Positions 15,110-38,709 of a stretch of 64,000 nucleotides of DNA are shown one piece after another. The DNA is from Dictyostelium discoideum (Eukaryota). Every line of letters begins with the position of its first letter. The stretch's first letter is position 1. The position numbers and the translations under genes are program-made. The stretch spans positions 480,001-544,000 of the forward strand of contig CM000150.2 of the NCBI GenBank assembly GCA_000004695.1, in the 5' to 3' direction. Under the pieces are notes generated by a model, which was given only the letters and a program-made list of their open reading frames with translations, did no database searches and was not told the DNA's origin.

Positions 15110-18317
<3,208 letters not shown>

Positions 18318-18515: not shown

Positions 18516-20338
18516 TTATTCATCAACTCCTATAAAACCTTTAGCATAATTAATTTTTAATTTTTCATTATAAACAAAAGGACTTACAAATGTTGAGTCT
18601 TTTGATTCTTTGTATTTTTTTTCAATCATTTTAGCTATTTTATGTTGTCTAATAACTTGATCAGAATAATCATCATCAATGTTTATCTTATTGAAAATTG
18701 AATTCCATTTTTCTTTTTTTGAATGGTAGATTGATTCCATTTCACTTAATTTTTCAAAAGCTTCACATGCACTTGGACGATCATAATCATTATGACTAAG
18801 CATTGAATAGATTAAATCACTTATTGGCAATGGAATTGAATCATGTAAAATTGGTCTAAGGAAATTGCGGACTCCATTATTTATTTGGGAATTTTCCCTA
18901 AGATTTCCAAAAGGATAAATATATTTCACTCCAATATATGGTATTGATGCACAAATTTCAAATAAAACAACACCCAATGCGAAAATATCAGTTTTAGTAT
19001 TTGCAACACTGTTGGAGGTGGCTTCAGGTGGTTGAAAACTTGATGTTCCAGCAAATTTCCTTAAGGTCTCTAGGTTTTCTGTTGAAAAAAAACGTGCAGT
19101 ACCAAAATCACAAACTTTAATTAAACCATTATCATTTACCAAAAAATTTTTAGATTTTAAATCTCTGTGAATTAAAGGACCATTTGGATTGGTGTGGATA
19201 TCATAAGCGCAATGAACCACACCAAAGGCATACCTAAAGAATTGATCAAATGATGTCATCTTTTCATTTCTTAAAACATCAAATAGAGTACCCTTTGAAC
19301 AATACTCTAAGAATAGGAATAAAGATTTTTCTTTATAGAAATAACCATATAAACCAACTGTTGATGGAGTTTGTGATAAGGACATTGATTCAACTTCTTT
19401 AACCACTTCATCTTTATTTGATTTATTTACTTCGCACTTTTTAACAGCACAGACTTTTTTTCATCTCCAATGGTATAATTTAATTTATAAACTTCACCAA
19501 ATGATCCTCTACCAATAAAATCGGTTAAAAGAGTACTATTAAAAGATTCAAATTGAAGGCATTTCTGTAATGGTGGTGCATCCTTTCCTTCAATCAATGG
19601 TTGAATTCTTGACATATTAACTGGAAAATAATGAAGTAAAAAACTATTAAATGATGGTGATTTTATAATATTCATTGAACGAATACCTAAAATTTCAAAC
19701 AATACAAATGTTCGAGCATGACAAAGGACCATAAAATTAGTAAAGGTTTTGATGATATTACTAATTTCAGTAACCATAATTAATAATGGACCATTTTTAT
19801 AAATCTCTTTCATCTTCATACCTGGGTCCCTCTTGATTGAACTATTTTTATCTTCAAGATATGGTTTTGCACCAAAAGCTAAAAGAATTTTGATAATATT
19901 TTCATCTTTAAGTTTTATTGCTAAATGAAGTGGAACAGATAATCTATTATTTCTTATGTTTGGATCTGCTCCACAAACCAATAATGCTGCAATAACTGGG
20001 GCACTTTCTGATTTTAAAGTTTTTAAGGCAATGTGAATTGCTGTATTACCATTATAGTATTGATAATTTAAATCAACATTCATTGCGGAGAGTTTACAAA
20101 AAAATGTAACATAATTTTTAAATAATTCAATTTTAGTTTGTTTTTCATCAAAGATTTTATTCCATTCCGATTCCATACTACTATTTGAATTACCCAATAT
20201 TGATGAGATTGATGGTAATGATTTTGGATTGATAATTGAATAATAAAGTATATTTGACTTTAAACTAGTTAAATTATATAAGTATCACAATATAAAATTA
20301 ATAAATAATATATTTATGTGTAATAAAATATTATATAG

Positions 20339-20388
<50 letters not shown>

Positions 20389-20958
20389 ATTATAAAAATA
20401 ATAATAATTATAAAAATAATAATAATAAACTTACTTTTCATTTTTATAAAAAACTTCTTGCAATAAATCAAGTTTTTCAATCAAAACTAATAAACTATTC
20501 AATTTATTGACGTCAGTTATTTTATCAATTGTTTCTCTAATTAAGTTAATAAATCCTTTGATAAAAACTGGGTTGAATCTGTTTTGATTTGAAATCAATA
20601 AATTGATTGCTTCTAATTCCAATCCATTTAAATAGTAGGTTTTAAATTTTTTAAATAATACCAATAGATTTAAATCTTTCTTAAATTCTTCCATTTTTTC
20701 ATTTTCCTTAAAAGATATTAATTTTCCATTAACTTTCACACCATTATCTTTTGTTTTTATATTGGTTTTATGAGTGATTTTAAATTTTTTTTTTTTATAA
20801 ATTATATAATCTTCAAACATATTTAAATCATCTGTTTTAGAACCAATAATTATCTGATCTTCATTAAAAGTTTCCTTTGGAGGAATTATTGACTTTAACT
20901 TGGATTTTAAATTATTTATACTTTTTTTTAATTCAAATTTATTTTTATCTTGATTTTC

Positions 20959-21033
<75 letters not shown>

Positions 21034-21192
21034 TTCATTATTATTATTTTGATTTTCCTTATTATTTTTATTATTATTAATTATATTTTGATTTTCATTA
21101 TTATTAATATTTTGACTATCATTATTATTTATATTTTGATTTTCATTATTATTTATATTTTGATTTTCATTATTATTTATATTTTGATTTTC

Positions 21193-21264
<72 letters not shown>

Positions 21265-21319
21265 ATTATTTTTATTATTAATATTATTTTTATTATTTTT
21301 ATTATTATTATTATTATTG

Positions 21320-21381
<62 letters not shown>

Positions 21382-21561
21382 ATTATTATTATTAATTCCA
21401 ATTATACTTTCATTTTTTTTTTTGTCTGGATCTATTACTAAACATTGGAGTAATATTTTTGATGAGATGAAATTATTTAATAATTCATAATTTTGGAAAT
21501 TTACCAAATTACCAAATTTTTTTTGGAAATTTTGGAAATCTTTTTCAATTTCCTTTTGCAT
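18516..21561 (-). CDS. N-rich ankyrin-repeat protein kinase (TKL-like), merged model complement(join(18516..20264,20435..21561)); a -1 frameshift in an A7 run at 19455..19461 breaks the kinase domain in this assembly
   Basis: ORF 20431..21561 ends ...EVFYKNE-AA|GTAAGT. After a 170-nt AT-rich intron ending AACTAG, the frame continues without a stop (NLKSNILYYSIINPKSLPSISSILGNSNSSMESEW...) into the ankyrin repeats (GNTAIHIALK..., SVPLHLAIKLKDENIIKILLAFGAKP). Kinase subdomains follow: GRGSFGEVY, VCAVKK (only if one extra A is present in the A7 run), HRDLKSKNFLV, DFGTAR. Confidence 0.6.
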
Positions 21562-21639: not shown

Positions 21640-22700
21640 AATTATTGTGATTATTAGAATGAGTGTTATACTTTAAATGAATGCTTTTGTATTTATGATT
21701 TATAAAAATAATATTGAGGTGTTTTTTTTTTTTTTTTTTTTTATACAAAAAAAGAATTAAAATAATTTGATATTGAAAAAAAATAAAAAAAAATTAAAAT
21801 AATTTGATATTGAAAAAAAAATAAAAAAAAATTAAAATTAAAATAAATAAATAAATAAATAAATTAAATATACAAAACTTAGCACATACCTAATATAACA
21901 TCAATATATCGCTTTCAAAAAAAAAAAAACAAAAAAAAAAGATACTCATGGGGGTAATTGTATCATGGGGTTAGTTGTTGAAAAAAATGAGCACTTTGTT
22001 AGTGTGTATTTTTCTTTTTTTTTTGTTGATGTTACAAATTGGAATGATGCATCTCATTAAAACTTCTTTTTATATAATTACAAAAAATTTATTCCCGAAA
22101 TGGTATTTTTTTTTTATCACAGTGGCTACTGTAATAAGGAATTAGTGGTTGAAAAAAAAAATACATTGTGTGTGTAATTTTTTTTTTATAGAAATGTTTT
22201 TTTTTTTGATAGTGGTTATTGTTTTGATTAATTTTTTTTTTTTATTTGGTGGTGGGAATTGTTTTGATAATTTTTTTTTTTTTTTTTTTGGTAGTGGGAA
22301 TAGTATAGATTATTATTAGTTTTTTATTTTTTTATTTATTTTTTTTTTTTAAAAATTAATACCTCCAATTTTTATTATTTATTTTTTTTTATTTTTTTTA
22401 TATAGTTCTACTATTTGTAGGTGCCCCTAAAATTAAAATAAATAATAATTGAAATTTATCAGTTTTGTTTTGCTAATCATTTATTTTTTTGAGGAAAAAG
22501 AGTATATCTCAAATTTTAAGATTTATATTTTTCATATAATGTAATTACCCAAGCGGGGTATTTTTTTTTTTTTAAATATACAATTTATTTTTTAATAATA
22601 TTATATAATATTTTTTTTTTTAATTTTGAAATTAAAAAATACTTTTTATTCGCAATATAATAAAAATTATATTATACCTTAAATATGGGTGGACAAGTTT

Positions 22701-22739
<39 letters not shown>

Positions 22740-22909
22740 CTTTTCATTTTGTTTAAACTCATTTTAATACAAACAAATAATAAAAATAAATAATTTAACC
22801 AAAAATAATATTGGTTTGTTATATTAATTATCTCTTTTTTTAAAAAATAGATACACCATTAATAATTTTAATAATAATTATTTATATTAAAATTATTATT
22901 GTTATTATT

Positions 22910-23400
22910 ATAGATTAGAATACAACATCACCAATAATAGTAATCATTCGTAGAAAATCACCAATTATGAAAGATTCAAAGTATTGAACATCTTGTTGTG
23001 ATTCCACCCTTCGTACTCCTGTTAAAACTCCAACTAAAGGTTCCACTACTACTGTTTCAGTAGTAACTAATACCCAACTATAGTGCTTCAATTACCGCTC
23101 CAACTGCTCCAAAACCAGTTTCTCGTAGTACAACCCGTAGCTTAACTAATGCACCCATCAATGCAGTCAATAGTGAAGATCTTCCATTAATCTAAACGGT
23201 AATTCAGCAAACCCCATAGTGTTACCTGTAGTACAGTAATATGGCCAGTAATTAGGCGAATCCCGTACTGAGGACTGTAATGTAGCCCTTACCGCAGCCT
23301 GCAATGCAGCCCATATTGAATCACCTTATCCTCATGAGTCATTTTAATTGGTATTCCTCTCATTATTTCCGCCCACTTCCCCAAAGTTATAATTAGTATT
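22910..23400. other. Island at about 42% G+C with decayed coding-like signal and no ORF of 60 aa or more on either strand; putative gene relic of unknown origin
   Basis: Base composition differs sharply from the flanks (under 20% G+C). Short open stretches encode S/T/P-rich (ASITAPTAPKPVSRSTTRSLTNAPINAVNSEDLPLI) and Cys-containing peptides, interrupted by stops in every frame. Confidence 0.3.
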
Positions 23401-23466
23401 TCAAAAAAAAAAATTCAAAAATAAACAACAAATAATTATTTAAAAATGTTTTTAAATTCTTAGGGT

Positions 23467-23525
<59 letters not shown>

Positions 23526-23985
23526 GTTTGGGAGTGTTAGTGTGCTATATTTTATTTGTTTTTTCAATTTTTTTTATTTAAAATAAAGTTAATGTTTTTG
23601 ATTTTTTTCAATATTTTTTTTGTCTAAATTTGGGGAAGTGGGTGTTTTTTCAAATAGTTATTGTTTTATGAGTGTTTTTAAGTGGTTGAGTGTGATGTAA
23701 TTTTTAATTTTTGTTATTTTAAAAAAATACAAATTGTTTTTGATAGTGTGTTGGTATGTGTTTTTATTTATTGTGTGTTTTTATTTGTTAAAATAAATAA
23801 AAAAAAAAAATAAAACATAATTTTTAATTTATTTTTTATTTTCATTTGTCAATATTAAAATTTACCAGTATAATAATTTATTATTTTTATCATTCTTGAA
23901 GACAGGAAAAAATAAAAAATTAATTATTTCTTTTATTATTTATTAAAAAAATAAAAAACTAAATCTGATTTTAAATAGTTTTACA

Positions 23986-26744
23986 ATGGAGAAAAAATTA
24001 TTAATAATAGTTATCATCTTTTTATTTTCAATTATCCAAGTATTTTGTAGAATTGATTCTAGTATGTATTAAACAAAAAAAAAAAACCAAAGTTTTAATA
24101 ATTTTTTAAAAAACATATTGTATTAATAATAAAAAACTTTAAATGAAAAATAGAAACATTTGTAATTTCAAATGAAACATTCCTATCATACCATTTTCCA
24201 GTTGGTAGTGAATATTTTTCATCATTAAATTTTGAACTTTTAGTAGGGCCATCATTTCAATTGGATTTTTAATGTATTACTTTCAATAGTACATTTTGTT
24301 TTTCAAAAATTGATCAAGAAAATAAAAAACAATTGTATGGTAAATCCATTACCTACTCAACACAAGAAACCTATGATTTGGATAAAAAAAGGCTACCAAC
24401 TCCAATAGTTTCTTCACCTTTCCAAAAACCAACAAAAGGTGGAACCTCAATTTTAAAAGGTACTTATTTAACATTTTTTGAAAAAAATTATTATGAAGTT
24501 ATCTACCCAGAAAAACAAACAATTGATATTTTGAATTCAAAATCATTATAATTCGATGCAACAAATGTTAAAGTTAATTGTCCACCTGGTTGTGGTTATC
24601 AAATAATTAAATGTGAGAATGGTAAATTATTTAATTTTAGTTATTCAAATCCATCAGTATTTGATTATAAAATAAATTCATCAAATATTATTGTAAATGG
24701 ATCTGATTTTTGTGATAGTTCTTATTCTTCAAATATTACAATTGATGGTGTTATCATTCCAAATTCAAATTATCAAAAAGATGAAGACTCAATTGTAATT
24801 ATTTATACTCAACAACATACAACCAAATCATTAATGAAAATAGAAACAAGCAATGTAACATCTGTTGAAATTGAAATTGTTTTTAAATCAGAACCATTAA
24901 TAATAAATTCAATTCCATATAGTAAAGGTGGTTTAATTATTTTAGAAGGTTTAAGATTATCTTCAAATACAAATAAAAACAATAATAACAATATAATTAT
25001 TAAAATTGGAAATACAACATGTTCAAATGCAATTTCAATATCAAATGAATCAATCACATGTAATTTAAATCCGGGTATAAATAAATCAGTTACTTTAAAT
25101 AATTTACCAGTTTCAGTTACAATTAATAATATTACAAATGAAAATACATTATTATTTAATTATGGTATGGTCAAATTAAATCCAAATAAATATAGTTTAC
25201 CAGATCGTGTTTTACAATTAAATGGTGATTGTCTCGGAAATTCAAATAGTACTATTGTTTATTTAAATGGAAAAGAAACATTATTAAATGATTTAAAAAT
25301 AAATAACCAAGAAACAACTTTATCATTTAAAATACCAGATGAATTTAAATCAAAATTAAATGTTTCAATCAAGGTAAATGATATTTTATCAAATGAAATT
25401 CAAATTGATATTTCATTTTATGCAAGTCATTCAAATGAACAACCAAGTACAAATGGTAAAACAAATATTATATTCACATTATATAATATTAAATCTGAAA
25501 ATTATAATAAAATACCATCAATTATTATAATTCCTGAACAAATTGTAATAAATGGTGTTTCAGTAAATTCACCAACCAATCAAGATGTTCATTCGTATTC
25601 ATTTTTAATTCCAGCTGGGTGTGGTAAAAAAGATATTCAAATTATAATTGGTAGTCAATCATGTTTGTCATCAATTACATACTTTGAACCAATTATTAAA
25701 AATTGTTTAGTATCAGGTTTTGATGGTACAAATGGAAATATAATTTGTGATGGTAGTTTTGGTAATAAAGATTATTTAATTAAATCATCTGTACTATTTT
25801 CAAATGATGAAATTGTACCACCATCAATCAATAGTACAACATTTTCGTTCCCTCTAATATCAGGTTATCACAGTGATGATTTAATTTTTCAAATGTGCGG
25901 TGTTCAAAGTAAACCATTTAAATTAAACATCTCACCATCATTAAAAGGAATCAATCACAGTCAAATGGAAACATTAGGTGGTAAATTTTACATTCTTGGT
26001 GAATTCTTTAGTGCAAATATAAATTGTAGTGTATTTTGCAATGATAAAGAATATGAAAAACATTTTGAAAACTCAAAGACGATTTCATTCGATTTACAAA
26101 TTCCAGGTCCAAATGATATTACATGTAATTATACATTTGATAATGGAAAAAATACTGGTGATTTTAAGATTGAATATCCTTTACCATTAATAGAAAATAC
26201 GAGCTCAATAAATGTAAATGGTGGAAATTTAACAATTTATGGTAAAAACTTTTATAATATTTCAAATATCAAAGTTGAAGTTGATAATCAATTAAAATGT
26301 AATAATATTGAATTTATTAATTTAAATAGTTTAACCTGTTTCTTACCACCATTTAATGAAACAAGAAAACAACCATTATTTAATGATCAAAAACTATTAT
26401 TAAATTCATCAACAACTATTTTTAGCAAAAAATTATTATTAAATGTTACATTTGAAAGTAAAACATGGAGTGGATATATTTTTCAATATTCAAAAGAAGA
26501 AATAAAAAATAATGGTACAAGTGAAAATTCAACCAATGATATTTTAAATCATGAAAAAAATAATAATAATCAGAAAGATGGAAGTAGTTTAAGTAAAAAA
26601 AGTATAATATTATTATCAATATTATTACCTGGTTTTATTATTTTAATAGTTTCTTTAACAATTGTTATTCTTGTAATTAAAAAAAATAAAACAAAACATA
26701 GTAAAAATATGTCACCAAAAGAGAAAGAATTAATGAAACAATAA
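23986..26744 (+). pseudogene. tgr-like IPT/TIG membrane glycoprotein, array copy 1, pseudogene: in-frame TAA at 24270..24272 and 24549..24551, plus a Trp-to-Cys change
   Basis: Same exon structure as copies 2-4 (exon 1 23986..24061, exon 2 from 24154). LDFECIT is replaced by LDF*CIT (gaa to taa) and SLSFDAT by SL*FDAT (tca to taa). IKWENG is replaced by IKCENG. The distal 636 codons (24834..26744) remain open. Confidence 0.75.
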
Positions 26745-27059
26745 TAGTAGCAATAAAAATAATTTAATAATTATTAAATTATTAATTTATTATTTATATT
26801 TAATAATTAATATTATTTGTAATAGGGAAATGGGCATCTTCAAATATTTTTTATTTCTCTGATCATAAATTTGAACCTGACCGATTTTTTTCCAAATTTC
26901 AATTTCACATTCTCCCAACTCAACAAAAAGATATTACTTAAAAAACTATAAAATTATATCGAATAACAATTTTTAAAAAATAGTAATAATAAAAAAAAAA
27001 AAGAAACATTCAATAATAATAATGATTGAAAAGATGTTTTTAAATTGTTGATTGTTTAG

Positions 27060-27137
27060 AAGTTTGTATTTTTTTTTGAAAATCCAATTTTAACTTTAAA
27101 ATACAATTTAATGTTTTTGATAGTGTGTTTTTTATTT

Positions 27138-27171
<34 letters not shown>

Positions 27172-27660
27172 AATGTGTGTTAGTGTACTATGTTTTATTA
27201 GTTATGTGAGTTTGTTGTGTTTTTTCAATTTATTCTATTTAAAATAAAGATAATGTTTTCGATAGTGTGTTATTTTTCAATATTTGTCTAAGTTTGGAGA
27301 AGTGGGTGTTTTTTTCAAATAATTATTGTTTTATGAGTGTTTTTAAGTGGTTAAGTGTGATGAAATTTTTTATTTTTTGTTATTTTAAAAAAATACAAAG
27401 TGTTTTTGATAGTGTGTTAGTGTGTGTTTTTATTTAATTTATTTTTATTCAATTTTTTTAATTATTTTTTAATATTGTATAAATAAATAATAAAAAAAAA
27501 TAAAACATTATAATTTTTAATTTATTTTTTATTTTCATTTGTCAATATTAAAATTTACCAGTATAATAATTTATTATTTTTATCATTCACCAACAAATAA
27601 TAAAAAAAATTAATTATTTGTTTTAAAATATTAAAAAATTAAATCTGATTTTAAATAATT
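27060..27660 (+). promoter_or_regulatory. Conserved 5' module of the tandem units, present at about 23460..23985, 27060..27665, 30740..31340 and 34600..35176, containing repeated GT-rich boxes (putative G-box/GBF-type developmental elements)
   Basis: Blocks such as ggagaagtgggtgttttttt, gtttttgatagtgtgttagtgtgtgttttt and gtggttaagtgtgatg recur in the same order before each copy, embedded in otherwise A/T-only DNA. The TTTTGATAGTGTG motif occurs about three times per unit. Confidence 0.35.
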
Positions 27661-27665
27661 TTACA

Positions 27666-30414
27666 ATGGAGAAAAAATTACTAATAATAGTTATCGTCTT
27701 TTTATTTTCAACTATCCAAGTATTTTGTAGAATTGATGATAGTATGTATAAAACAAAAAAACAAAACTTTATCATTTTTCAAAAAACATATTGTATTAAT
27801 AAATGAAAACTTTAAATGAAAAATAGAAACATTTGTAATTTCAAATGAAACATACCTATCATACCATTTTCCTGTTGATAGTGAATACTTTTCATCATTA
27901 AATTTTGAACATTATGAAGGACCATCATTTCAATTGGATTTTGAATGTATTACTTTCAATGGCACAATTTGTTTTTCACAAATTTATCCAGAAATTAAAA
28001 AAAAAATTTATGGTACGTCAATTTCATATTCAACACAAAAAACATACAAATTAGATCAAGAATTGTTTCCAACTCCAATAGTTTCCTCACCTTTCCAACC
28101 TCCAACAAAAGGTGGAATCTCAATTTTAAAAGGTACTTTTTTAACATTTTCGGAAAAAACCTTTTATCAAGTTATCTACCCAAAAAAGCAAAAGATTTTT
28201 ATTTTAGATTCAGAATCGTTATCGTTCGATGCAACAAATTTTAAAGTTAATTGTCCACCTGGTTGTGGTTATCAAATAATTAAATGGGATAATGGTAATT
28301 TATTTAATTTTAGTTATTCAAATCCATCAATATCGGTTGTTAAAATAAATCCATCAAATATTATTGTAAATGGATCTGATTTTTGTGATAGTTCTTATTC
28401 TTCAAATATTACAATTGATGGAGTTATCATTCCAAATTCAAATTATGAAAAAGATGAAGACTCAATTGTAATTATTTATACTCAACAACACACAATCAAA
28501 TCATTAATGAAAATTGAAACAAGCAATGTAACATCTGTTGAAATTGAAATTGTTTTTAAACCAGAACCTTTATTAATAAACTCGGTTCCATATAGTAAAG
28601 GTGGTTTATTAATTTTAGAAGGTTTAAGATTATCTTCAAATACAACAAATAAAAATAATAACAATAATAATATAATTATTAAAATTGGAAATATTACATG
28701 TTCAAACGCAATTTCAATCTCAAATGATTCAATCACATGTAATTTAAATCCGGGTTTTAATAATAAATCAGTTACTTTAAATAATTTACCAGTTTCAGTT
28801 ACAATTAACAATATTACAAATGAAAATAAATTATTATTTAATTATGGCATCGTTAAATTAAATCCAAATAAATATAGTTTACCAGATCGTGTTTTACAAT
28901 TAAATGGTGATTGTCTCGGAAATTCAAATGGTACTATAGTTTATTTAAATGGAAAAGAAACATTATTAAATGATTTAAAAATAAATAACCAAGAAACAAC
29001 TTTATCATTTAAAATACCAGATGAATTTAAATCAAAATTAAATGTTTCAATCAAGGTAAATGATATTTTATCAAATGAAATTCAAATTGATATTTCATTT
29101 TATGCAAGTCATTCAAATGAACAACCAAGTACAAATGGTAATACAAATATTATATTCACATTATATAATATTAAATCTGAAAATTATAATAAAATACCAT
29201 CAATTATTATAATTCCTGAACAAATTGTAATAAATGGTGTTTCAGTAAATTCACCAACCAATCAAGATGTTCATTCGTATTCATTTTTAATTCCAGCTGG
29301 GTGTGGTAAAAAAGATATTCAAATTATAATTGGTAGTCAATCATGTTTGTCATCAATTACATACTTTGAACCAATTATTAAAAATTGTTTAGTATCAGGT
29401 TTTGATGGTACAAATGGAAATATAATTTGTGATGGTAGTTTTGGTAATAAAGATTATTTAATTAAATCATCTGTACTATTTTCAAATGATGAAATTATAC
29501 CACCATCAATCAATAGTACAACATTTTCGTTCCCGCTTATATCAGGTTATCACAGTGATGATTTAATTTTTCAAATGTGTGGTGTTCAAAGTAAACCATT
29601 TAAATTAAACATCTCACCATCATTAAAAGGAATCAATCAAAGTCAAATGGAAACATTAGGTGGTAAATTTTACATTCTTGGTGAATTCTTTAGTGCAAAT
29701 ATAAATTGTAGTGTATTTTGCAATGATAAAGAATATGAAAAAAAATTTGAAAACTCAAAGACGATTTCATTCGATTTACAAATTCCAGGTCCAAATGATA
29801 TTACATGTAATTATACATTTGATAATGGAAAAAATACTGGTGATTTTAAGATTGAATATCCTTTACCATTAATAGAAAATACGAGTTCAATAAATGTAAA
29901 TGGTGGAAATTTAACAATTTATGGTAAAAACTTTTATAATGTTTCAAATATCAAAGTTGAAGTTGATAATCAATTAAAATGTAATAAAATTGAATTTATT
30001 AATTTAAATAGTTTAACCTGTTTCTTACCACCATTTATTGAAACATTATTTAATGATCAAAAACTATTATTAAATTCATCAACAACTATTTTTAGTAAAA
30101 AATTATTATTAAATGTTACATTTGAAAGTAAAACATGGAGTGGATATATTTTTCAATATTCAAAAGAAGAAATAAAAAATAATGATACAAGTGAAAATTC
30201 AACCAATGATATTTTAAATCATGAAAAAAATAATAATAATCAGAAAGATGGAAGTAGTTTAAGTAAAAAAAGTATAATATTATTATCAATATTATTACCT
30301 AGTTTTATTATTTTAATAGTTTCTTTGGCAATTGTTATTCTTGTAATTAAAAGAAATAAAACAAAACATAGTAAAAATATGTCATCAAAAGAGAAAGAAT
30401 TAATGAAACAATAA
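27666..30414 (+). CDS. tgr-like IPT/TIG type-I membrane glycoprotein, array copy 2, join(27666..27741,27827..30414)
   Basis: Signal peptide MEKKLLIIVIVFLFSTIQVFC in exon 1 (GTATGT...ATAG intron, phase 1). At least three IPT/TIG-like modules (e.g. PYSKGGLLILEGLRLSS...IIIKIGNITCSNAISISNDSITCNLNPG; YPLPLIENTSSINVNGGNLTIYGKNFYNVSNIKVEVDNQLKC...LTCFLPPF). More than 50 N-x-S/T sequons. C-terminal TM SIILLSILLPSFIILIVSLAIVILVI with a short basic tail. Lacks 4 aa (FIETLFNDQ) relative to copies 1, 3 and 4 (FNETRKQPLFNDQ). Confidence 0.8.
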
Positions 30415-30807
30415 TAGTAGCAATAAAAATAATTTAATAATTATTAAATTATTAATTTATTATTTACATTTAATAATTAATATTATTTGTAATAGGGAAA
30501 TGGGCATCTTCAAATATTTTTTATTTCTCTGATCATAAATTTGGACCTGACCGATTTTTTTCCAAATTTCAATTTCACATTCTCCCAACTCAACAAAAAG
30601 ATATTACTTAAAAAACTATAAAATTATATCAAATAACAATTTTTAAAAAATAGTGATAATAAAAAAAAAAAAGAAACATTCAATAATAATAATAATTGAA
30701 AAGATGTTTTTAAATTGTTGATTGTTTAGAAGTTTGTATTTTTTTTTGAAAATCCAATTTTAACTTTAAAATACAATTTAATGTTTTTGATAGTGTGTTT
30801 TTTATTT

Positions 30808-30840
<33 letters not shown>

Positions 30841-31340
30841 AATGTGTGTTAGTGTACTATGTTTTATTAGTTATGTGAGTTTGTTGTGTTTTTTCAATTT
30901 ATTCTATTTAAAATAAAGATAATGTTTTCGATAGTGTGTTATTTTTCAATATATTTTTGTTGTCTAAGTTTGGAGAAGTGGGTGTTTTTTTCAAATAATT
31001 ATTGTTTTATGAGTGTTTTTAAGTGGTTAAGTGTGATGAAATTTTTTATTTTTTGTTATTTTAAAAAAATACAAAGTGTTTTTGATTGTGTGTTAGTGTG
31101 TGTTTTTATTTAATTTATTTTTATTCAATTTTTTTAATTATTTTTTAATTTTGTATAAATAAATAATAAAAAAAATAAAACATAATAATTTTTAATTTAT
31201 TTTTTATTTTCATTTGTCAATATTAAAATTTACCAGTATAATAATTTATTATTTTTATCATTCACCAACAAATAATAAAAAAAATTAATTATTTGTTTTA
31301 AAATATTAAAAAATTAAATCTGATTTTAAATAATTTTACA

Positions 31341-34098
31341 ATGGAGAAAAAATTACTAATAATAGTTATCGTCTTTTTATTTTCAACTATCCAAGTATTT
31401 TGTAGAATTGATGATAGTATGTATAAAACAAAAAAACAAAACTTTATCATTTTTCAAAAAACATATTTTATTAATAAATGAAAACTTTAAATGAAAAATA
31501 GAAACATTTGTAATTTCAAATGAAACATACCTATCATACCATTTTCCTGTTGGTAGTGAATACTTTTCATCATTAAATTTTGAACATTATGAAGGACCAT
31601 CATTTCAATTGGATTTTGAATGTATTACTGGCAATGGTACAGTTTGTTTTTCACAAATTTATCCAGAAATTAAAAAAAAATTTTATGGTACGTCAATTTC
31701 ATATTCAACACAAAAAACATACAAATTAGATCATGAATTGTTTCCCACTCCAATAGTTTCCTCACCTTTCCGACCACCAACAAAAGGTGGAATCTCAATT
31801 TTAAAAGGTACTTATTTAACATTTTCTGAAAGACTTTCCTATTATGAAGTTATCTACCCAAAAAAACAAAAGATTGTGATTTCAGATTCAGAATCATTAT
31901 CATTCGATGCAACAAACGTTAAAGTTAATTGTCCACCTGGTTGTGGTTATCAAATAATTAAATGGGAGAATGGCCAATTATTTAATTTTAGTTATTCAAA
32001 TCCATCAGTATTTGATTATAAAATAAATCCATCAAATATTATTGTAAATGGATCTGATTTTTGTGATAGTTCTTATTCTTCAAATATTACAATTGATGGT
32101 GTTATCATTCTAAATTCAAACTACCAAAAAGATGAAGACTCAATTGTAATTATTTATACTCAACAACACACGACCAAATCATTAATGAAAATTGAAACTA
32201 GCAATGTAACTTCTGTTGAAATTGAAATTGTTTTTAAACCAGAACCATTAATTATAAATTCAATTCCATATATTAAAGGTGGTTTAATTATTTTAGAAGG
32301 TTCAAGATTATCTTCAAATACAAATAAAAACAATAATAATAATATAATTATTAAAATTGGAAATATTACATGTTCAAACGCAATTTCAATCTCAAATGAA
32401 TCAATCACATGTAATTTAAATCCGGGTATATATAATAAATCAGTTCCCTTAAATAATTTACCAGTTTCAGTTACAATTAACAATATTACAAATGAAAATA
32501 CATTATTATTTAATTATGGTATGGTCAAATTAAATCCAAATAAATATAGTTTACCAGATCGTGTTTTACAATTAAATGGTGATTGTCTTGGAAATTCAAA
32601 TAGTACCATAGTTTATTTAAATGGAAAAGAAACATTATTAAATGATTTAAAAATAAATAACCAAGAAACAACTTTATCATTTAAAATACCAGATGAATTT
32701 AAATCAAAATTAAATGTTTCAATCAAGGTAAATGATATTTTATCAAATGAAATTCAAATTGATATTTCATTTTATGCAAGTTATTCTAATGAACAACCAA
32801 GTACAAATGGTAATACAAATATAATATTCACATTATATAATATTAAATCTGAAAATTATAATAAAATACCATCAATTATTATAATTCCTGAACAAATTGT
32901 AATAAATGGTGTTTCAGTAAATTCACCAACCAATCAAGATGTTCATTCGTATTCATTTTTAATTCCAGCTGGGTGTGGTAAAAAAGATATTCAAATTATA
33001 ATTGGTAGTCAATCATGTTTGTCATCAATTACATACTTTGAACCAATTATTAAAAATTGTTTAGTATCAGGTTTTGATGGTACAAATGGAAATATAATTT
33101 GTGATGGTAGTTTTGGTAATAAAGATTATTTAATTAAATCATCTGTACTTTTTTCAAATGATGAAATTGTACCACCATCAATCAATAGTACAACATTTTC
33201 GTTCCCACTAATATCAGGTTATCACAGTGATGATTTAATTTTTCAAATGTGCGGTGTTCAAAGTAAACCATTTAAATTAAACATCGCACCATCTTTGAAA
33301 AGAATCGATCAAAGTCAAATGGAAACATTGGGTGGTAAATTTTACATTCTTGGCGAATTCTTTGGTGTAAATATAAATTGTAGTGTATTTTGCAATGATA
33401 AAGAATATGAAAAAAAATTTGAAAACTCAAAGACGATTTCATTCGATTTACAAATTCCAGGTCCAAATGATATTACATGTAATTATACATTTGATAATGG
33501 AAAAAATACTGGTGATTTTAAGATTGAATATCCTTTACCATTAATAGAAAATACGAGTTCAATAAATGTAAATGGTGGAAATTTAACAATTTATGGTAAA
33601 AACTTTTATAATGTTTCAAATATCAAAGTTGAAGTTGATAATCAACTAAAATGTAATAATTTTGAATTTATTAATTTAAATAGTTTAACCTGTTTCTTAC
33701 CACCATTTAATGAAACAAGAAAACAATCATTATTTAATGATCAAAAACTATTATTAAATTCATCAACAACTATTTTTAGCAAAAAATTATTATTAAATGT
33801 TACATTTGAAAGTAAAACATGGAGTGGATATATTTTTCAATATTCAAAAGAAGAAATAAAAAATAATGATACAAGTGAAAATTCAACCAATGATATTTTA
33901 AATCATGAAAAAAATAATAATAATAATCAGAAAGATGGAAGTAGTTTAAGTAAAAAAAGTATAATATTATCAATATTATTACCTGGTTTTATTATTTTAG
34001 TAGTTTCTTTAACAATTGTTATTATTGTAATTAAAAGAAATAAAACAAAACATAGTAAAAATATGTCATCAAAAGAGAAAGAATTAATGAAACAATAA
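31341..34098 (+). CDS. tgr-like IPT/TIG type-I membrane glycoprotein, array copy 3, join(31341..31416,31502..34098)
   Basis: Same architecture as copy 2. Intact ORF with scattered substitutions clustered in the N-terminal domain. One-residue shorter TM (SIILSILLPG...). Confidence 0.8.
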
Positions 34099-35176
34099 TA
34101 GTAGCAATAAAAATAATTTAATAATTATTAAATTATTAAATTATTATTTATATTTAATAATTAATATTATTTGTAATAGGGAAATGGATGTATCTTCAAA
34201 ATATTTTTTATTTCTCTGATCATAAATTTGAACCTGACCGATTTTTTTCCAAATTTCAATTTCACATTCTCCCAACTCAACAAAAAGATATTACTTAAAA
34301 AACGATAAAATTATATCAAATAACAATTTTTAAAAAATAGTAATAAAAAAAAAAAAATTAAAAAGAAACATTCAATAATAATAAAAATTAAAAAAAATGT
34401 TTTTAAATTGTTGATTGTTTAGAAGTTTGTATTTTTTTTTGAAAATCCAATTTTAACTTTGGAGAAGTGGGTGTGTTTTTAATTTTTTTTTTTTGTAAAT
34501 CTAATTATAACTTAGGAGAAGTGGGTGTTTTTTTTTTTTTTTTTTTTTATGAAAGTGTGTTAATGTGTGATGTTTTGATTTGTTAAATGATTTTTTCTCT
34601 TTTAATTCAATTTGTTTTTTTTTAAAATACAATTTAATGTTTTTGATAGTGTGCATTTTTTATTTGTTTTTTTTTTTTTTTTTTTTGGAATGTGTGTTAG
34701 TGTACTATGTTTTATAAGTTATGTGAGTTTGTTGTGTTTTTTCAATTTATTTTATTTAAAATAAAGATAATGTTTTCGATAGTGTGTTATTTTTCAATAT
34801 ATTTTTGTTATCTGAGTTTGAAGAAGTGGGTGTTTTTTCAAATAATTATTGTTTTATGAGTGTTTTTAAGTGGTTAAGTGTGATGAAATTTTTTATTTTT
34901 GTTATTTTAAAAAAAAATACAAAGTTTTTTTGATAGTGTGTTAGTGTGTGTTTATTTAATGTATTTTTATTCAATTTTTTTAATTATTTTTTAATTATAT
35001 TTGAATAAATAATAAAAAAAATAAAACATTAAAATATTTAATTTTTTTTTTTTTTTCATTTGTCAATATTAAAATTTACCAGTATAATTTATTATTTTTA
35101 CCATTCACCAATAAAAAAAAAAATTATTATTTATTTTAAAAATAAAAAACTAAATCTGATTTTAAATAGTTTTACA

Positions 35177-38100
35177 ATGGAGAAAAAATTATTAATAATA
35201 GTTATCATCTTTTTATTTTCAACTATCCAAGTATTTTGTCAAATTGATTATAGTATGTATAAAACAAAAAAACAAACTTTTAATAATTTTTTAAAATATA
35301 TTGTATTAATAATTGAAAACTTTAAATTAAAAATAGAAACATTTGTAATTTCAAATGAAACATACCTATCATACCATTTTCCAGTTGGTAGTGAATATTT
35401 TTCATCATTAAATTTTGAACGTTTCGTAGGTCCATCATTTCAACTGGATTTTGAATGTATTACTTTCAATGGTACAGTTTGTTTTTCTCAAATTAATCAA
35501 GAAAATAAAAAACAATTGTATGGTACATCCATTACCTATACAACAAAAGTAACTATTAGTTTGTATAAGAATAACCTTCCAACTCCAATAGTTTCTTCAC
35601 CTTTCCAACCTCCAACAAAAGGTGGAATCTCAATTTTAAAAGGTACCTATTTAACATTTTCTGAAAGACTTTCCTATTATGAAGTTATCTACCCAAAAAA
35701 ACAAAAGATTGTGATTTCAGATTCAGAATCATTATCATTCGATGCAACAAACGTTAAAGTTAATTGTCCACCTGGTTGTGGTTATCAAATAATTAAATGG
35801 GAGAATGGCCAATTATTTAATTTTAGTTATTCAAATCCATCAGTATTTGATTATAAAATAAATCCATCAAATATTATTGTAAATGGATCTGATTTTTGTG
35901 ATAGTTCTTATTCTTCAAATATTACAATTGATGGTGTTATCATTCCAAATTCAAACTACCAAAAAGATGAAGACTCAATTGTAATTATTTATATTCAACA
36001 ACACACAACCAAATCATTATTGAAAATAGAAACAAGCAATGTAACATCTGTTGAAATTGAAATTGTTTTTAAACCAGAACCATTAATTATAAATTCAATT
36101 CCATATAGTAAAGGTGGTTTAATTATTTTAGATGGTTCAAGATTATCTTCAAATACAAATAAAAACAATAATAATATAATTATTAAAATTGGAAATATTA
36201 CATGTTCAAACGCAATTTCAATCTCAAATGAATCAATCACATGTAATTTAAATCCGGGTATATATAATAAATCAGTTGCCTTAAATAATTTACCAGTTTC
36301 AGTTACAATTAATAATATTACAAATGGAAATACATTATTATTTAATTATGGTATGGTCAAATTAAATCCAAATAAATATAGTTTACCAGATCGTATTTTA
36401 CAATTAAATGGTGATTGTCTCGGAAATTCAAATAGTACTATTGTTTATTTAAATGGAAAAGAAACATTATTAAATGATTTAAAAATAAATAACCAAGAAA
36501 CAACTTTATCATTTAAAATACCAGATGAATTTAAATCAAAATTAAATGTTTCAATCAAGGTAAATGATATTTTATCAAATGAAATTCAAATTGATATTTC
36601 ATTTTATGCAAGTCATTCTAATGAACAACCAAGTACAAATGGTAATACAAATATTATATTCACATTATATAATATTAAATCTGAAAATTATAATAAAATA
36701 CCATCGATTATAATTATTCCTGAACAAATTGTTATTAATGGTGTTTCAGTAAATTCACCAACCAACCAAGATGTTCATTTGTATTCATTTTTAATTCCAG
36801 CTGGGTGTGGTAAAAAAGATATTCAAATTATAATTGGTAGTCAATCATGTTTGTCATCAATTACATACTTTGAACCAATTATTAAAAATTGTTTAGTATC
36901 AGGTTTTGATGGTACAAATGGAAATATAATTTGTGATGGTAGTTTTGGTAATAAAGATTATTTAATTAAATCATCTGTACTTTTTTCAAATGATGAAATT
37001 GTACCACCATCAATCAATAGTACAACATTTTCGTTCCCTCTAATATCAGGTTATCACAGTGATGATTTAATTTTTCAAATGTGCGGTGTTCAAAGTAAAC
37101 CATTTAAATTAAACATCTCACCATCATTAAAAAGAATCAATCAAAGTCAAATGGAAACATTGGGTGGTAAATTTTACATTCTTGGTGAATTCTTTAGTGC
37201 AAATATAAATTGTAGTGTATTTTGCAATGATAAAGAATATGAAAAACATTTTGAAAACTCAAAGACGATTTCATTCGATTTACAAATTCCAGGTCCAAAT
37301 GATATTACATGTAATTATACATTTGATAATGGAAAAAATACTGGTGATTTTAAGATTGAATATCCTTTACCATTAATAGAAAATACGAGTTCAATAAATG
37401 TGAATGGTGGAAATTTAACAATTTATGGTAAAAACTTTTATAATGTTTCAAATATCAAAGTTGAAGTTGATAATCAATTAAAATGTAATAATATTGAATT
37501 TATTAATTTAAACAGTTTAACCTGTTTCTTACCACCATTTAATGAAACAAGAGAGCAATCATTATTTAATGATCAAAAACTATTATTAAATTCATCAACA
37601 ACTATTTTTAGCAAAAAATTATTATTAAATGTTACATTTGAAAGTAAAACATGGAGTGGATATATTTTTCAATATTCAAAAGAAGAAATAAAAAATAATG
37701 GTACAAGTGAAAATTCAAGTAATGATATAATAGATCATGAAAAAAACAATAATACTACAAAAAATGGTAAAGGCGGTATCAATTTAAGTAAAGAAAGTAA
37801 AATAATAATTTCTGTAGTCTTACCTGGTGTTATTATTTTAATAATTTTATCGGTAGTAGTAATCTATCGTATTAGAATAAATAGAATTACACGAAATACA
37901 TATGTGAAAAAAATTAATGAAATGAAAACAATAACACCAGAAGAGAAACGAGATGAAATAGATGAATCAGATGAAATTAAAAAAAAACTTGATATTGAAA
38001 TGTCAGAATTAAGATCCAATCTATTCATACACTCAATCAGTTATACTAACACACTCAAAGAACAACAAATGGAAAGGGATCAAATCAATAAAAGTCCAAG

Positions 38101-38377
38101 TCTACAAATTCAACCACAAAATAATCAATTGAATATAATTAATAATGGTGAAGGTTCAAGTCAACAAATTCAACCACAAAGTAATCAATCAAATATTATT
38201 AATAATGATGAGGGTTCAAGCCACCAATTTCAACCTGAAATTAATCAATCCAATACAATTAATAATAGTGAAGGTTCAAGTCAACAAATTCAACCACAAA
38301 ATAATCAATTGAATATAATTAATAATGATGTGGGTTCAAGTCACCAATCTAAGCAAAATGATAGTACTGGTTGCTGA
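35177..38377 (+). CDS. tgr-like IPT/TIG type-I membrane glycoprotein, array copy 4, join(35177..35252,35337..38377), with a divergent TM and a roughly 200-aa cytoplasmic tail carrying three EGSSQQIQPQNNQLNIINN-type repeats
   Basis: Ectodomain is collinear with copies 2 and 3 up to ...YSKEEIKNNGTSENS. It then diverges (KNGKGGINLSKESKIIISVVLPGVIILIILSVVVIY...) into a long tail with an acidic stretch and three 19-aa repeats. The 3' flank is also unrelated to those of units 1-3. Confidence 0.75.
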   Translation: MEKKLLIIVIIFLFSTIQVFCQIDYSMYKTKKQTFNNFLKYIVLIIENFKLKIETFVISNETYLSYHFPVGSEYFSSLNFERFVGPSFQLDFECITFNGTVCFSQINQENKKQLYGTSITYTTKVTISLYKNNLPTPIVSSPFQPPTKGGISILKGTYLTFSERLSYYEVIYPKKQKIVISDSESLSFDATNVKVNCPPGCGYQIIKWENGQLFNFSYSNPSVFDYKINPSNIIVNGSDFCDSSYSSNITIDGVIIPNSNYQKDEDSIVIIYIQQHTTKSLLKIETSNVTSVEIEIVFKPEPLIINSIPYSKGGLIILDGSRLSSNTNKNNNNIIIKIGNITCSNAISISNESITCNLNPGIYNKSVALNNLPVSVTINNITNGNTLLFNYGMVKLNPNKYSLPDRILQLNGDCLGNSNSTIVYLNGKETLLNDLKINNQETTLSFKIPDEFKSKLNVSIKVNDILSNEIQIDISFYASHSNEQPSTNGNTNIIFTLYNIKSENYNKIPSIIIIPEQIVINGVSVNSPTNQDVHLYSFLIPAGCGKKDIQIIIGSQSCLSSITYFEPIIKNCLVSGFDGTNGNIICDGSFGNKDYLIKSSVLFSNDEIVPPSINSTTFSFPLISGYHSDDLIFQMCGVQSKPFKLNISPSLKRINQSQMETLGGKFYILGEFFSANINCSVFCNDKEYEKHFENSKTISFDLQIPGPNDITCNYTFDNGKNTGDFKIEYPLPLIENTSSINVNGGNLTIYGKNFYNVSNIKVEVDNQLKCNNIEFINLNSLTCFLPPFNETREQSLFNDQKLLLNSSTTIFSKKLLLNVTFESKTWSGYIFQYSKEEIKNNGTSENSSNDIIDHEKNNNTTKNGKGGINLSKESKIIISVVLPGVIILIILSVVVIYRIRINRITRNTYVKKINEMKTITPEEKRDEIDESDEIKKKLDIEMSELRSNLFIHSISYTNTLKEQQMERDQINKSPSLQIQPQNNQLNIINNGEGSSQQIQPQSNQSNIINNDEGSSHQFQPEINQSNTINNSEGSSQQIQPQNNQLNIINNDVGSSHQSKQNDSTGC

Positions 38378-38709
38378 TAAATAATTAAAATAATAAAAAA
38401 AAAATAAAAAAATAAAAAAATAAAAAAATAGTAATAATATAATCCTTTTTTAAAATAATAAATTATAAACAATATTAATTTTTAATTTTTAAAATTATTA
38501 TTTTAGTATTTTCTTTTTACACCTTCAAAGCATAGGTACTTTTTAAAATTGAGATTTTTTTGTTTTTTTGTGTTGGAAAGGAGCAAAATTTGAAAAGATC
38601 TTTCTAAAAATAGAATTAATTTGAATGACAAAGTTTTTTTTTTTTTTTTTTTAAGATTTTTTTTTTTTTTTTTTTTTTATCATTTTTTTTTTTATTTTTA
38701 AAATCAAAA

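Follow-up and report, generated by a model that had tools for sequence, protein, structure and literature searches.

Composition and position of the island

The locus raises the question of how a short G+C-rich island with broken reading frames came to lie in an extremely A+T-rich Dictyostelium genome, directly beside a tandem gene array. We analysed a stretch of 64,000 nucleotides (the window, to which all coordinates refer unless another locus is named), in which the island occupies 22910–23400. Its G+C content is 0.385 (38.5%), rising to 0.416 (41.6%) in a core at 22990–23390, so that the value of ~42% over ~500 bp given in an earlier note on this sequence holds for the core and not for the whole 490 bp. 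The low-G+C surroundings (<20%) described there were confirmed, with 0.139 in the left flank (22400–22909) and 0.154 in the right (23401–23900) in a window with an overall G+C content of 20.3% and a median of 0.20. The island is the highest-G+C 491-bp stretch in the 64 kb by a small margin; native exons at ~13.7 kb and ~55.5 kb reach 0.36. All six frames are interrupted by 8–15 stops, and the longest open stretch, at 58 codons, is unremarkable because 29% of dinucleotide shuffles attain that length. One copy is present in the window and one in each related locus.

To the right lies a four-unit tandem array of tgr (IPT/TIG) genes with units of ~3.67 kb, members of which match Pfam Ig_TgrO1 in related loci. 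Array homology starts at 23443–23471, ~50 bp away, which places the island at the 5' boundary of the array, as the earlier note had stated. To the left are an Asn-rich ORF (20431–21561, minus strand), an ankyrin-kinase gene and an IRE1 orthologue. The island and its right-hand border comprise the following features:

22915–23197, minus strand (most probably): distal part of the island, a coding-sequence relic read in two window frames
23198–23368, no strand assigned: proximal part of the island, ~175 bp, G+C 0.435
23369–23402, minus strand: inverted tgr spacer motif (GAAATACTAATTATAACTTTGGGGAAGTGGGCGG) that bounds the island and matches 34476–34525 on the opposite strand
23443–23524, plus strand: start of tgr array spacer homology (AAAATGTTTTTAAATT...) with a 57-nt T run

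Coding periodicity in the distal part

The whole length of the island is tiled by four minus-strand ORFs; among shuffles, just 2.5% allow a crossing that needs at most three frame switches. A further signal comes from three-base periodicity, which is strong from ~23197 to 22915 when G+C is followed by phase in sliding windows. Windowed period-3 power over the distal 280–340 bp exceeded that of all 2000 shuffles (p<0.0005) in the window copy and in the orthologous islands of two related assemblies, L001 and L004. The low-G+C phase jumps by one (from 2 to 0) near 23085 in the window copy, and a single phase is held for more than 300 nt in the same region of L001 and L004. G+C at codon positions 1/2/3 is 0.52/0.38/0.10 in L001 (chi-square p=4e-9), 0.52/0.40/0.10 in L004, and 0.62/0.44/0.18 and 0.53/0.29/0.19 in the two window frames. 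Tandem Repeats Finder detected no repeat inside the island able to mimic this periodicity.

The G+C of the distal part thus stems from Gly, Val, Thr, Arg and Ala codons, with the excess in codon positions 1 and 2, and third-position G+C (0.18–0.20 in the window copy, 0.10 in the orthologues) compares with 0.09–0.16 in neighbouring native genes. For the readable part, these third positions run counter to the earlier contention that composition argues against a native sequence. Periodicity together with native-like third positions means that the distal 60% of the island codes for protein, or did so until recently, with synonymous sites of native composition. Read on the minus strand, the relic runs through an ORF at 23170–23078 and then one at 23091–22915, giving the conceptual product ...LRVVLRETGFGAVGAVIGVIVGVLVITETVV...VQYFESFIIGDFLRMITIIGDVVF*.

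Residual codon structure of the kind expected in a pseudogene, namely periodicity and host-like third positions, is therefore present distally and is not significant in the proximal 175 bp. There, period-3 tests gave p=0.07–0.23, chi-square tests on ORF frames a and b gave p=0.4–0.7, and G+C is ~43% at all three phases. The proximal part also carries more frame-breaking indels (30/28, 1, 4, 1 and 7 nt); neither strand shows a compensatory pair (0 found), and predicted pairs are broken by some of the substitutions. The segment may be a scrambled remnant of the 5' half of the gene, or it may be unrelated to it. Because it combines 43% G+C with a lack of periodicity, a non-native origin is conceivable for this part alone.

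Orthologous islands and disabling lesions

Related loci were taken from five public assemblies with the IRE1 orthologue as anchor. Islands at the same position occur in the two assemblies labelled D. discoideum (L001 17803–18285 and L004 17997–18466), which are 81–82% identical to the window copy with many indels. No island was found within 10 kb on either side of the IRE1 gene in D. citrinum (two loci) or D. purpureum. The spacer motif at 23369–23402 is partly deleted in L001.

Four features of the window copy bear on its coding capacity:

23073–23089, minus strand: window-specific 1-nt insertion, GAAGCACTATAGTTGGG versus GGAGTAATA-GTTGGAG in the orthologues
23141–23158, minus strand: candidate start of the relic ORF, ATG GGT GCA TTA GTT AAG, with the ATG at 23158–23156
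22984–23013, minus strand: 21-nt (7-codon) unit, single in the window and duplicated in L001 and L004 (RGGVPTR GDGTTTR)
23192–23199, minus strand: 7-nt segment present in the window copy only, removal of which joins the upstream frame to the periodic frame

The 1-nt insertion shifts the frame, creates a TAG at 23080–23078 and coincides with the phase jump. The single 21-nt unit is flanked by compensating deletions of 1 and 2 nt, and the window copy has three frame-changing indels in all. The orthologues have an open frame of 96 codons (L001) and 95 codons (L004), in both cases with a TAA directly upstream and no in-frame ATG upstream. At the candidate start, which contains the only candidate ATG in the window copy and may have been the start of the former gene, both orthologues read ATA for ATG and TAA for AAG. 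An intact copy with a start codon was not seen in any genome examined. Disabling lesions are thus present in every copy: the +1 and 7-nt insertions in the window, and the ATG>ATA change, the TAA and indels of +4 and +1 in L001 and L004. Since the window carries the +1 insertion and the two relatives carry ATA and TAA, the lesions are lineage-specific. Together with the coding periodicity of the distal 280 bp, these lineage-specific lesions bear out the earlier description of a relic with broken reading frames.

When the orthologue state was chosen for each indel, the resulting composite contained a stop-free path of 178 codons on the minus strand and 83 on the plus strand. None of 60 column shuffles reached 178 codons, a statistic that is only moderately strong because the reversed sequence yields 159 codons and the distribution is heavy-tailed. 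Substitutions between the window copy and L001 are spread evenly over codon positions 1/2/3 (11/10/7, small counts), and the divergence of the distal part (11–13%) is at least that of its flanks (4–8% in the left flank; 4% at IRE1 third positions), which fits unconstrained, neutral decay. G+C-rich neutral DNA would be expected to change faster in an A+T-biased genome.

Two observations concern L001 in particular. A single substitution at ~18054–18058, and at the aligned site of L004, makes a TTAA palindrome, through which the periodic frame acquires a TAA stop on both strands simultaneously. A deposited gene model of 1077 aa (L001 13283–18229, minus strand) begins at an ATG in the island (ATGGGCTGC) and merges the island with the genes downstream. 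The L004 gene model leaves the island out, and the L001 model is probably an annotation artefact.

Coding strand of the relic

The coding strand is most probably the minus strand, pointing away from the tgr array. This strand is favoured because it offers the longer open path, shows no lesion in the periodic part common to all three copies, and has its terminal stop where the G+C-rich sequence gives way to A+T-rich sequence. Periodicity by itself is compatible with either strand. Synonymous-codon scores did not separate the strands (0.36 for minus and 0.27 for plus, with 0.46–0.78 for real genes), a frameshift-tolerant codon score was equal on both, and several codons of the minus frame are infrequent in host genes (GGA, favoured over GGT, as well as CGA and CTA).

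We regard it as unlikely that the same relic was instead encoded on the plus strand, co-oriented with the tgr genes, as a Pro/Thr/Ser-rich, mucin-like product (…VKTPTKGSPNTTVSVITKTPTITPITAPTAPKPVSRSTTRS…). The plus frame has the same A/T-rich third positions and remains open for 60 codons in L001 (Pro/Thr-rich) and for ~83 in the composite, ACT and CCA, the codons it uses most, are usual in the host, and its frameshift-tolerant score matches that of the minus strand. Yet within the periodic region the plus frame carries a stop (MKDS[K/M]Y*) common to all three copies, where the minus frame has no shared lesion, and the open path is less than half as long (83 versus 178 codons). The Leu, Arg and Ser codons of the plus frame (CTT, CGT and TCT) are moreover atypical, its synonymous score is lower, and protein and Pfam searches found no homologue of its product.

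Homology searches

The earlier note had proposed comparing the island with known proteins and with rDNA and mitochondrial DNA. A concatenation of all six frames searched against 5.8 billion proteins returned no homologue and no transposon protein at E<=1, and a profile built from three conceptual translations returned nothing at E<=10 in the same collection. At the coding level, no mitochondrial protein matched, and no rRNA family was found at E<=10. Pfam gave no significant domain for the six frames or the composite translations, a PDB sequence search gave only a 33-aa transmembrane peptide (E=0.55), and blastn found no match in plasmid and phage DNA. Two exact-pattern scans of metagenomes were without a match, as was tblastn of the composite proteins for paralogues in the window and all related loci. 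Exact-sequence look-ups of three window ORFs (16152–18317, 20431–21561 and 22915–23091) returned none on record. A phmmer search of the 58-aa ORF against 1.84 billion representatives produced one match, P0124, a HEAT-like repeat protein that aligns to the short PLVG..RVES motif five times and was rejected as spurious. Neither the six frames nor the composite nor the profile thus recovered a functional parent or orthologue of the relic, and because no parent gene or homologue was found, the case for a gene is a statistical one.

Origin of the island

We posit, with a probability of roughly 0.6, that the island is the decaying remnant of a small, native-type Dictyostelium protein-coding gene that is now functionless. 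The former product would have been rich in Gly, Val, Ile, Thr and Arg, of ~80–170 residues, and would have contained one hydrophobic, transmembrane-like stretch (FGAVGAVIGVIVGVLVI), suggesting a membrane protein; the proximal 175 bp would have belonged to the same gene. The high G+C would derive from the first two codon positions of the amino acids of this product, with third positions as A/T-rich as those of host genes. The gene would have been restricted to the lineage of this genome and two close relatives and would have been disabled by different lesions in two lineages. As the remnant of a native, lineage-restricted gene and not of foreign or transposon DNA, the island would be an ordinary pseudogene-type relic. 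Of the earlier interpretation, the broken-frame relic would accordingly stand, and the non-native composition and the horizontal or transposon origin would not.

Such a relic resembles a unitary pseudogene in its retained codon periodicity, frameshifts, nonsense codon and start loss, and also in its even substitution pattern and its presence as a single copy at the syntenic position in relatives. It is unlike one in having no known functional orthologue or parent and a 5' portion that is not readable as coding. The former gene is an orphan in that no functional orthologue or parent gene is known. Small Gly/Val-rich Dictyostelium proteins of the hssA/2C/7E type, which we take to be a lead for the relic product, are similar in having a short G/V/I/T-rich product, a GxxxG-like hydrophobic run and a relatively G+C-rich exon. 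However, the island matches no protein family (Pfam; profile search at E<=10), and membership is not supported.

A more specific version, that the island is a very young orphan gene (arisen de novo or changing too quickly to be recognised) caught dying beside the fast-evolving tgr array with its variable copy number, strikes us as distinctly unlikely. Under this version, because the first lesions differ between lineages, intact expressed alleles may still segregate in natural populations, and if such alleles exist, the locus would offer a small-scale example of how orphan genes arise and die next to a gene family of the cell-recognition type. The island itself is biologically minor, one more lineage-specific gene remnant in a rearranged and unusually divergent region. 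It illustrates that G+C-rich islands in genomes of extreme A+T richness can have sources other than foreign DNA and RNA genes, and that G+C by codon position can separate amino acid-driven G+C from donor composition.

Alternative explanations

That the island is instead a relic of horizontally acquired or transposon-borne DNA is quite improbable, even though it has the top G+C of the window, includes 175 bp with ~43% G+C at all three phases and sits at a rearrangement-prone boundary. Since D. citrinum and D. purpureum lack it at the syntenic loci, it may be a recent arrival. A foreign source is hard to reconcile with a distal third-position G+C of 0.10, which is the native value, and with the lack of matches among 5.8 billion proteins, plasmid and phage DNA and the scanned metagenomes. 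A transposon would be expected to leave other traces, but the island is flanked only by homopolymer runs, with no terminal inverted or direct repeats and no target-site duplication, and occurs once in the window and once per related locus. Together, the lack of a protein homologue, of a plasmid or phage match, of terminal repeats and of further copies tells against the horizontal or transposon origin that the earlier note had entertained. For the known Dictyostelium transposons (DIRS-1, Skipper, TRE, DDT, Tdd and thug), the six-frame search showed no similarity to transposon proteins at E<=1. A nearby tRNA gene is a feature of TRE elements, and no tRNA was found in the 64 kb. We also consider it improbable that, in the relatives at least, the sequence still functions as a short ORF or exon, with the frameshift in the window being strain-specific or a sequencing error. 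The open frames of 95–96 codons in L004 and L001, the predominance of multiples of three among the indels of the periodic part (3, 3, 12, 3 and 21/24), the 96% conservation of the 3' 76 nt and the L001 gene model that begins within the island would all be in keeping with function. Set against these are the TAA directly upstream and the missing upstream in-frame ATG in both relatives, the three frame-changing indels of the window copy, the even distribution of substitutions over codon positions, the L004 model that omits the island, and the fact that no predicted protein in the databases matches.

G+C-rich islands in the A+T-rich intergenic DNA of Dictyostelium are often RNA genes, and the island has an RNA-gene-like size and a non-periodic proximal half. 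A gene for a structured non-coding RNA is nevertheless very improbable here. Rfam gave no hit at gathering score and, at E<=10, only a chance-level match to snoR07 (E=4), whose 20 bits fall short of the gathering score of 44; scans for tRNA and tmRNA, including relaxed ARAGORN, gave none. Folding z-scores are ordinary (−0.9 and −0.7 on the two strands), and for both strands alifold found 0 compensatory pairs and a covariation term of unfavourable (positive) sign, in a comparison whose power is low because it rests on only three closely related sequences. Indels of 1–30 nt between the orthologues point the same way. The DUSE promoter box (CCCAYAA) lies ~60 nt upstream of Dictyostelium RNA genes, and the window contains just two copies of it (5796 and 8333), both more than 14 kb from the island. 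The island resembles Dictyostelium snRNA, snoRNA, SRP RNA and Class I RNA genes as a G+C island in A+T-rich intergenic DNA, and is unlike them in lacking an Rfam match, a nearby DUSE and a stable or conserved fold and in having a coding-type three-base periodicity. There is likewise very little chance that the island serves the tgr array as a boundary or cis-regulatory element, for instance as clustered G-box-type sites. Its position at the array boundary and its edge, where the motif that precedes every tgr unit occurs in inverted form, would suit such a role, but Smith-Waterman scores of the island body against tgr upstream regions fall inside the shuffle range, the edge motif is partly deleted in L001, and a regulatory element leaves the coding periodicity unexplained.

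The tgr array and its neighbourhood

The motif GGRGAAGTGGG, which we take to resemble promoter elements of the G-box/GBF type, has seven matches in the window against 0.19 expected. Six are on the plus strand (23632, 27296, 30972, 34461, 34515 and 34820) and one on the minus strand at the island edge (23372); the plus-strand sites occur ~350 bp upstream of each tgr start codon in G+T-rich DNA. The exact pattern had no match in the D. citrinum or D. purpureum loci. Strand-skewed G+T-rich stretches at 22100–22400, 23530–23790, 27170–27420 and 34540–34960 show GC skew up to +0.8 and AT skew down to −0.55, and a tandem repeat of 40–42 nt occupies 22197–22333 in 3.3 copies. Homopolymer T runs of 42–66 nt (22703–22744, 23468–23524, 27128–27170, 30798–30839 and 38634–38699) mark the surroundings of the island and every array-unit boundary; the first two bracket the island, and both are preceded by GGGTG.

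Copies of the Ig_TgrO1 type number four in the window (23443–38377) and one in L004 (19212–22712), and L001 (18721–22633) has one copy plus a 125-aa fragment. With four copies against one, array copy number varies between close relatives. The ORF of the first array unit (24834–26744) encodes 636 aa, whereas the ORFs of units 2 and 3 encode 826–829 aa and that of unit 4 encodes 1105 aa; the first unit may be a disrupted copy. Literature searches with tgrO1 and neighbouring gene identifiers gave no match, and an ireA review contained no gene identifier.

In D. citrinum (L002 14782–17655 and L005 15231–18095), the block comprising the kinase and Asn-rich genes has the opposite orientation to that in the window, and one breakpoint falls in the intergenic region where the window has the island. 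This inversion identifies that intergenic region as a rearrangement site. Between the window and L001 or L004, the ankyrin-kinase gene (18516–20197, minus strand) differs by 5–12% at each codon position, the second position being somewhat less divergent than the first and third. For IRE1 the figures are 0.5–1% at the first two positions and 4% at the third. Judging from these differences, constraint on the ankyrin-kinase gene is much weaker than on the adjacent IRE1 gene. The nearest assemblies labelled D. discoideum share ~90% identity with the window in the kinase, Asn-rich and tgr genes and 93% in the IRE1 protein, and on this sequence evidence the window seems to come from a lineage distinct from those assemblies or from a very divergent haplotype.
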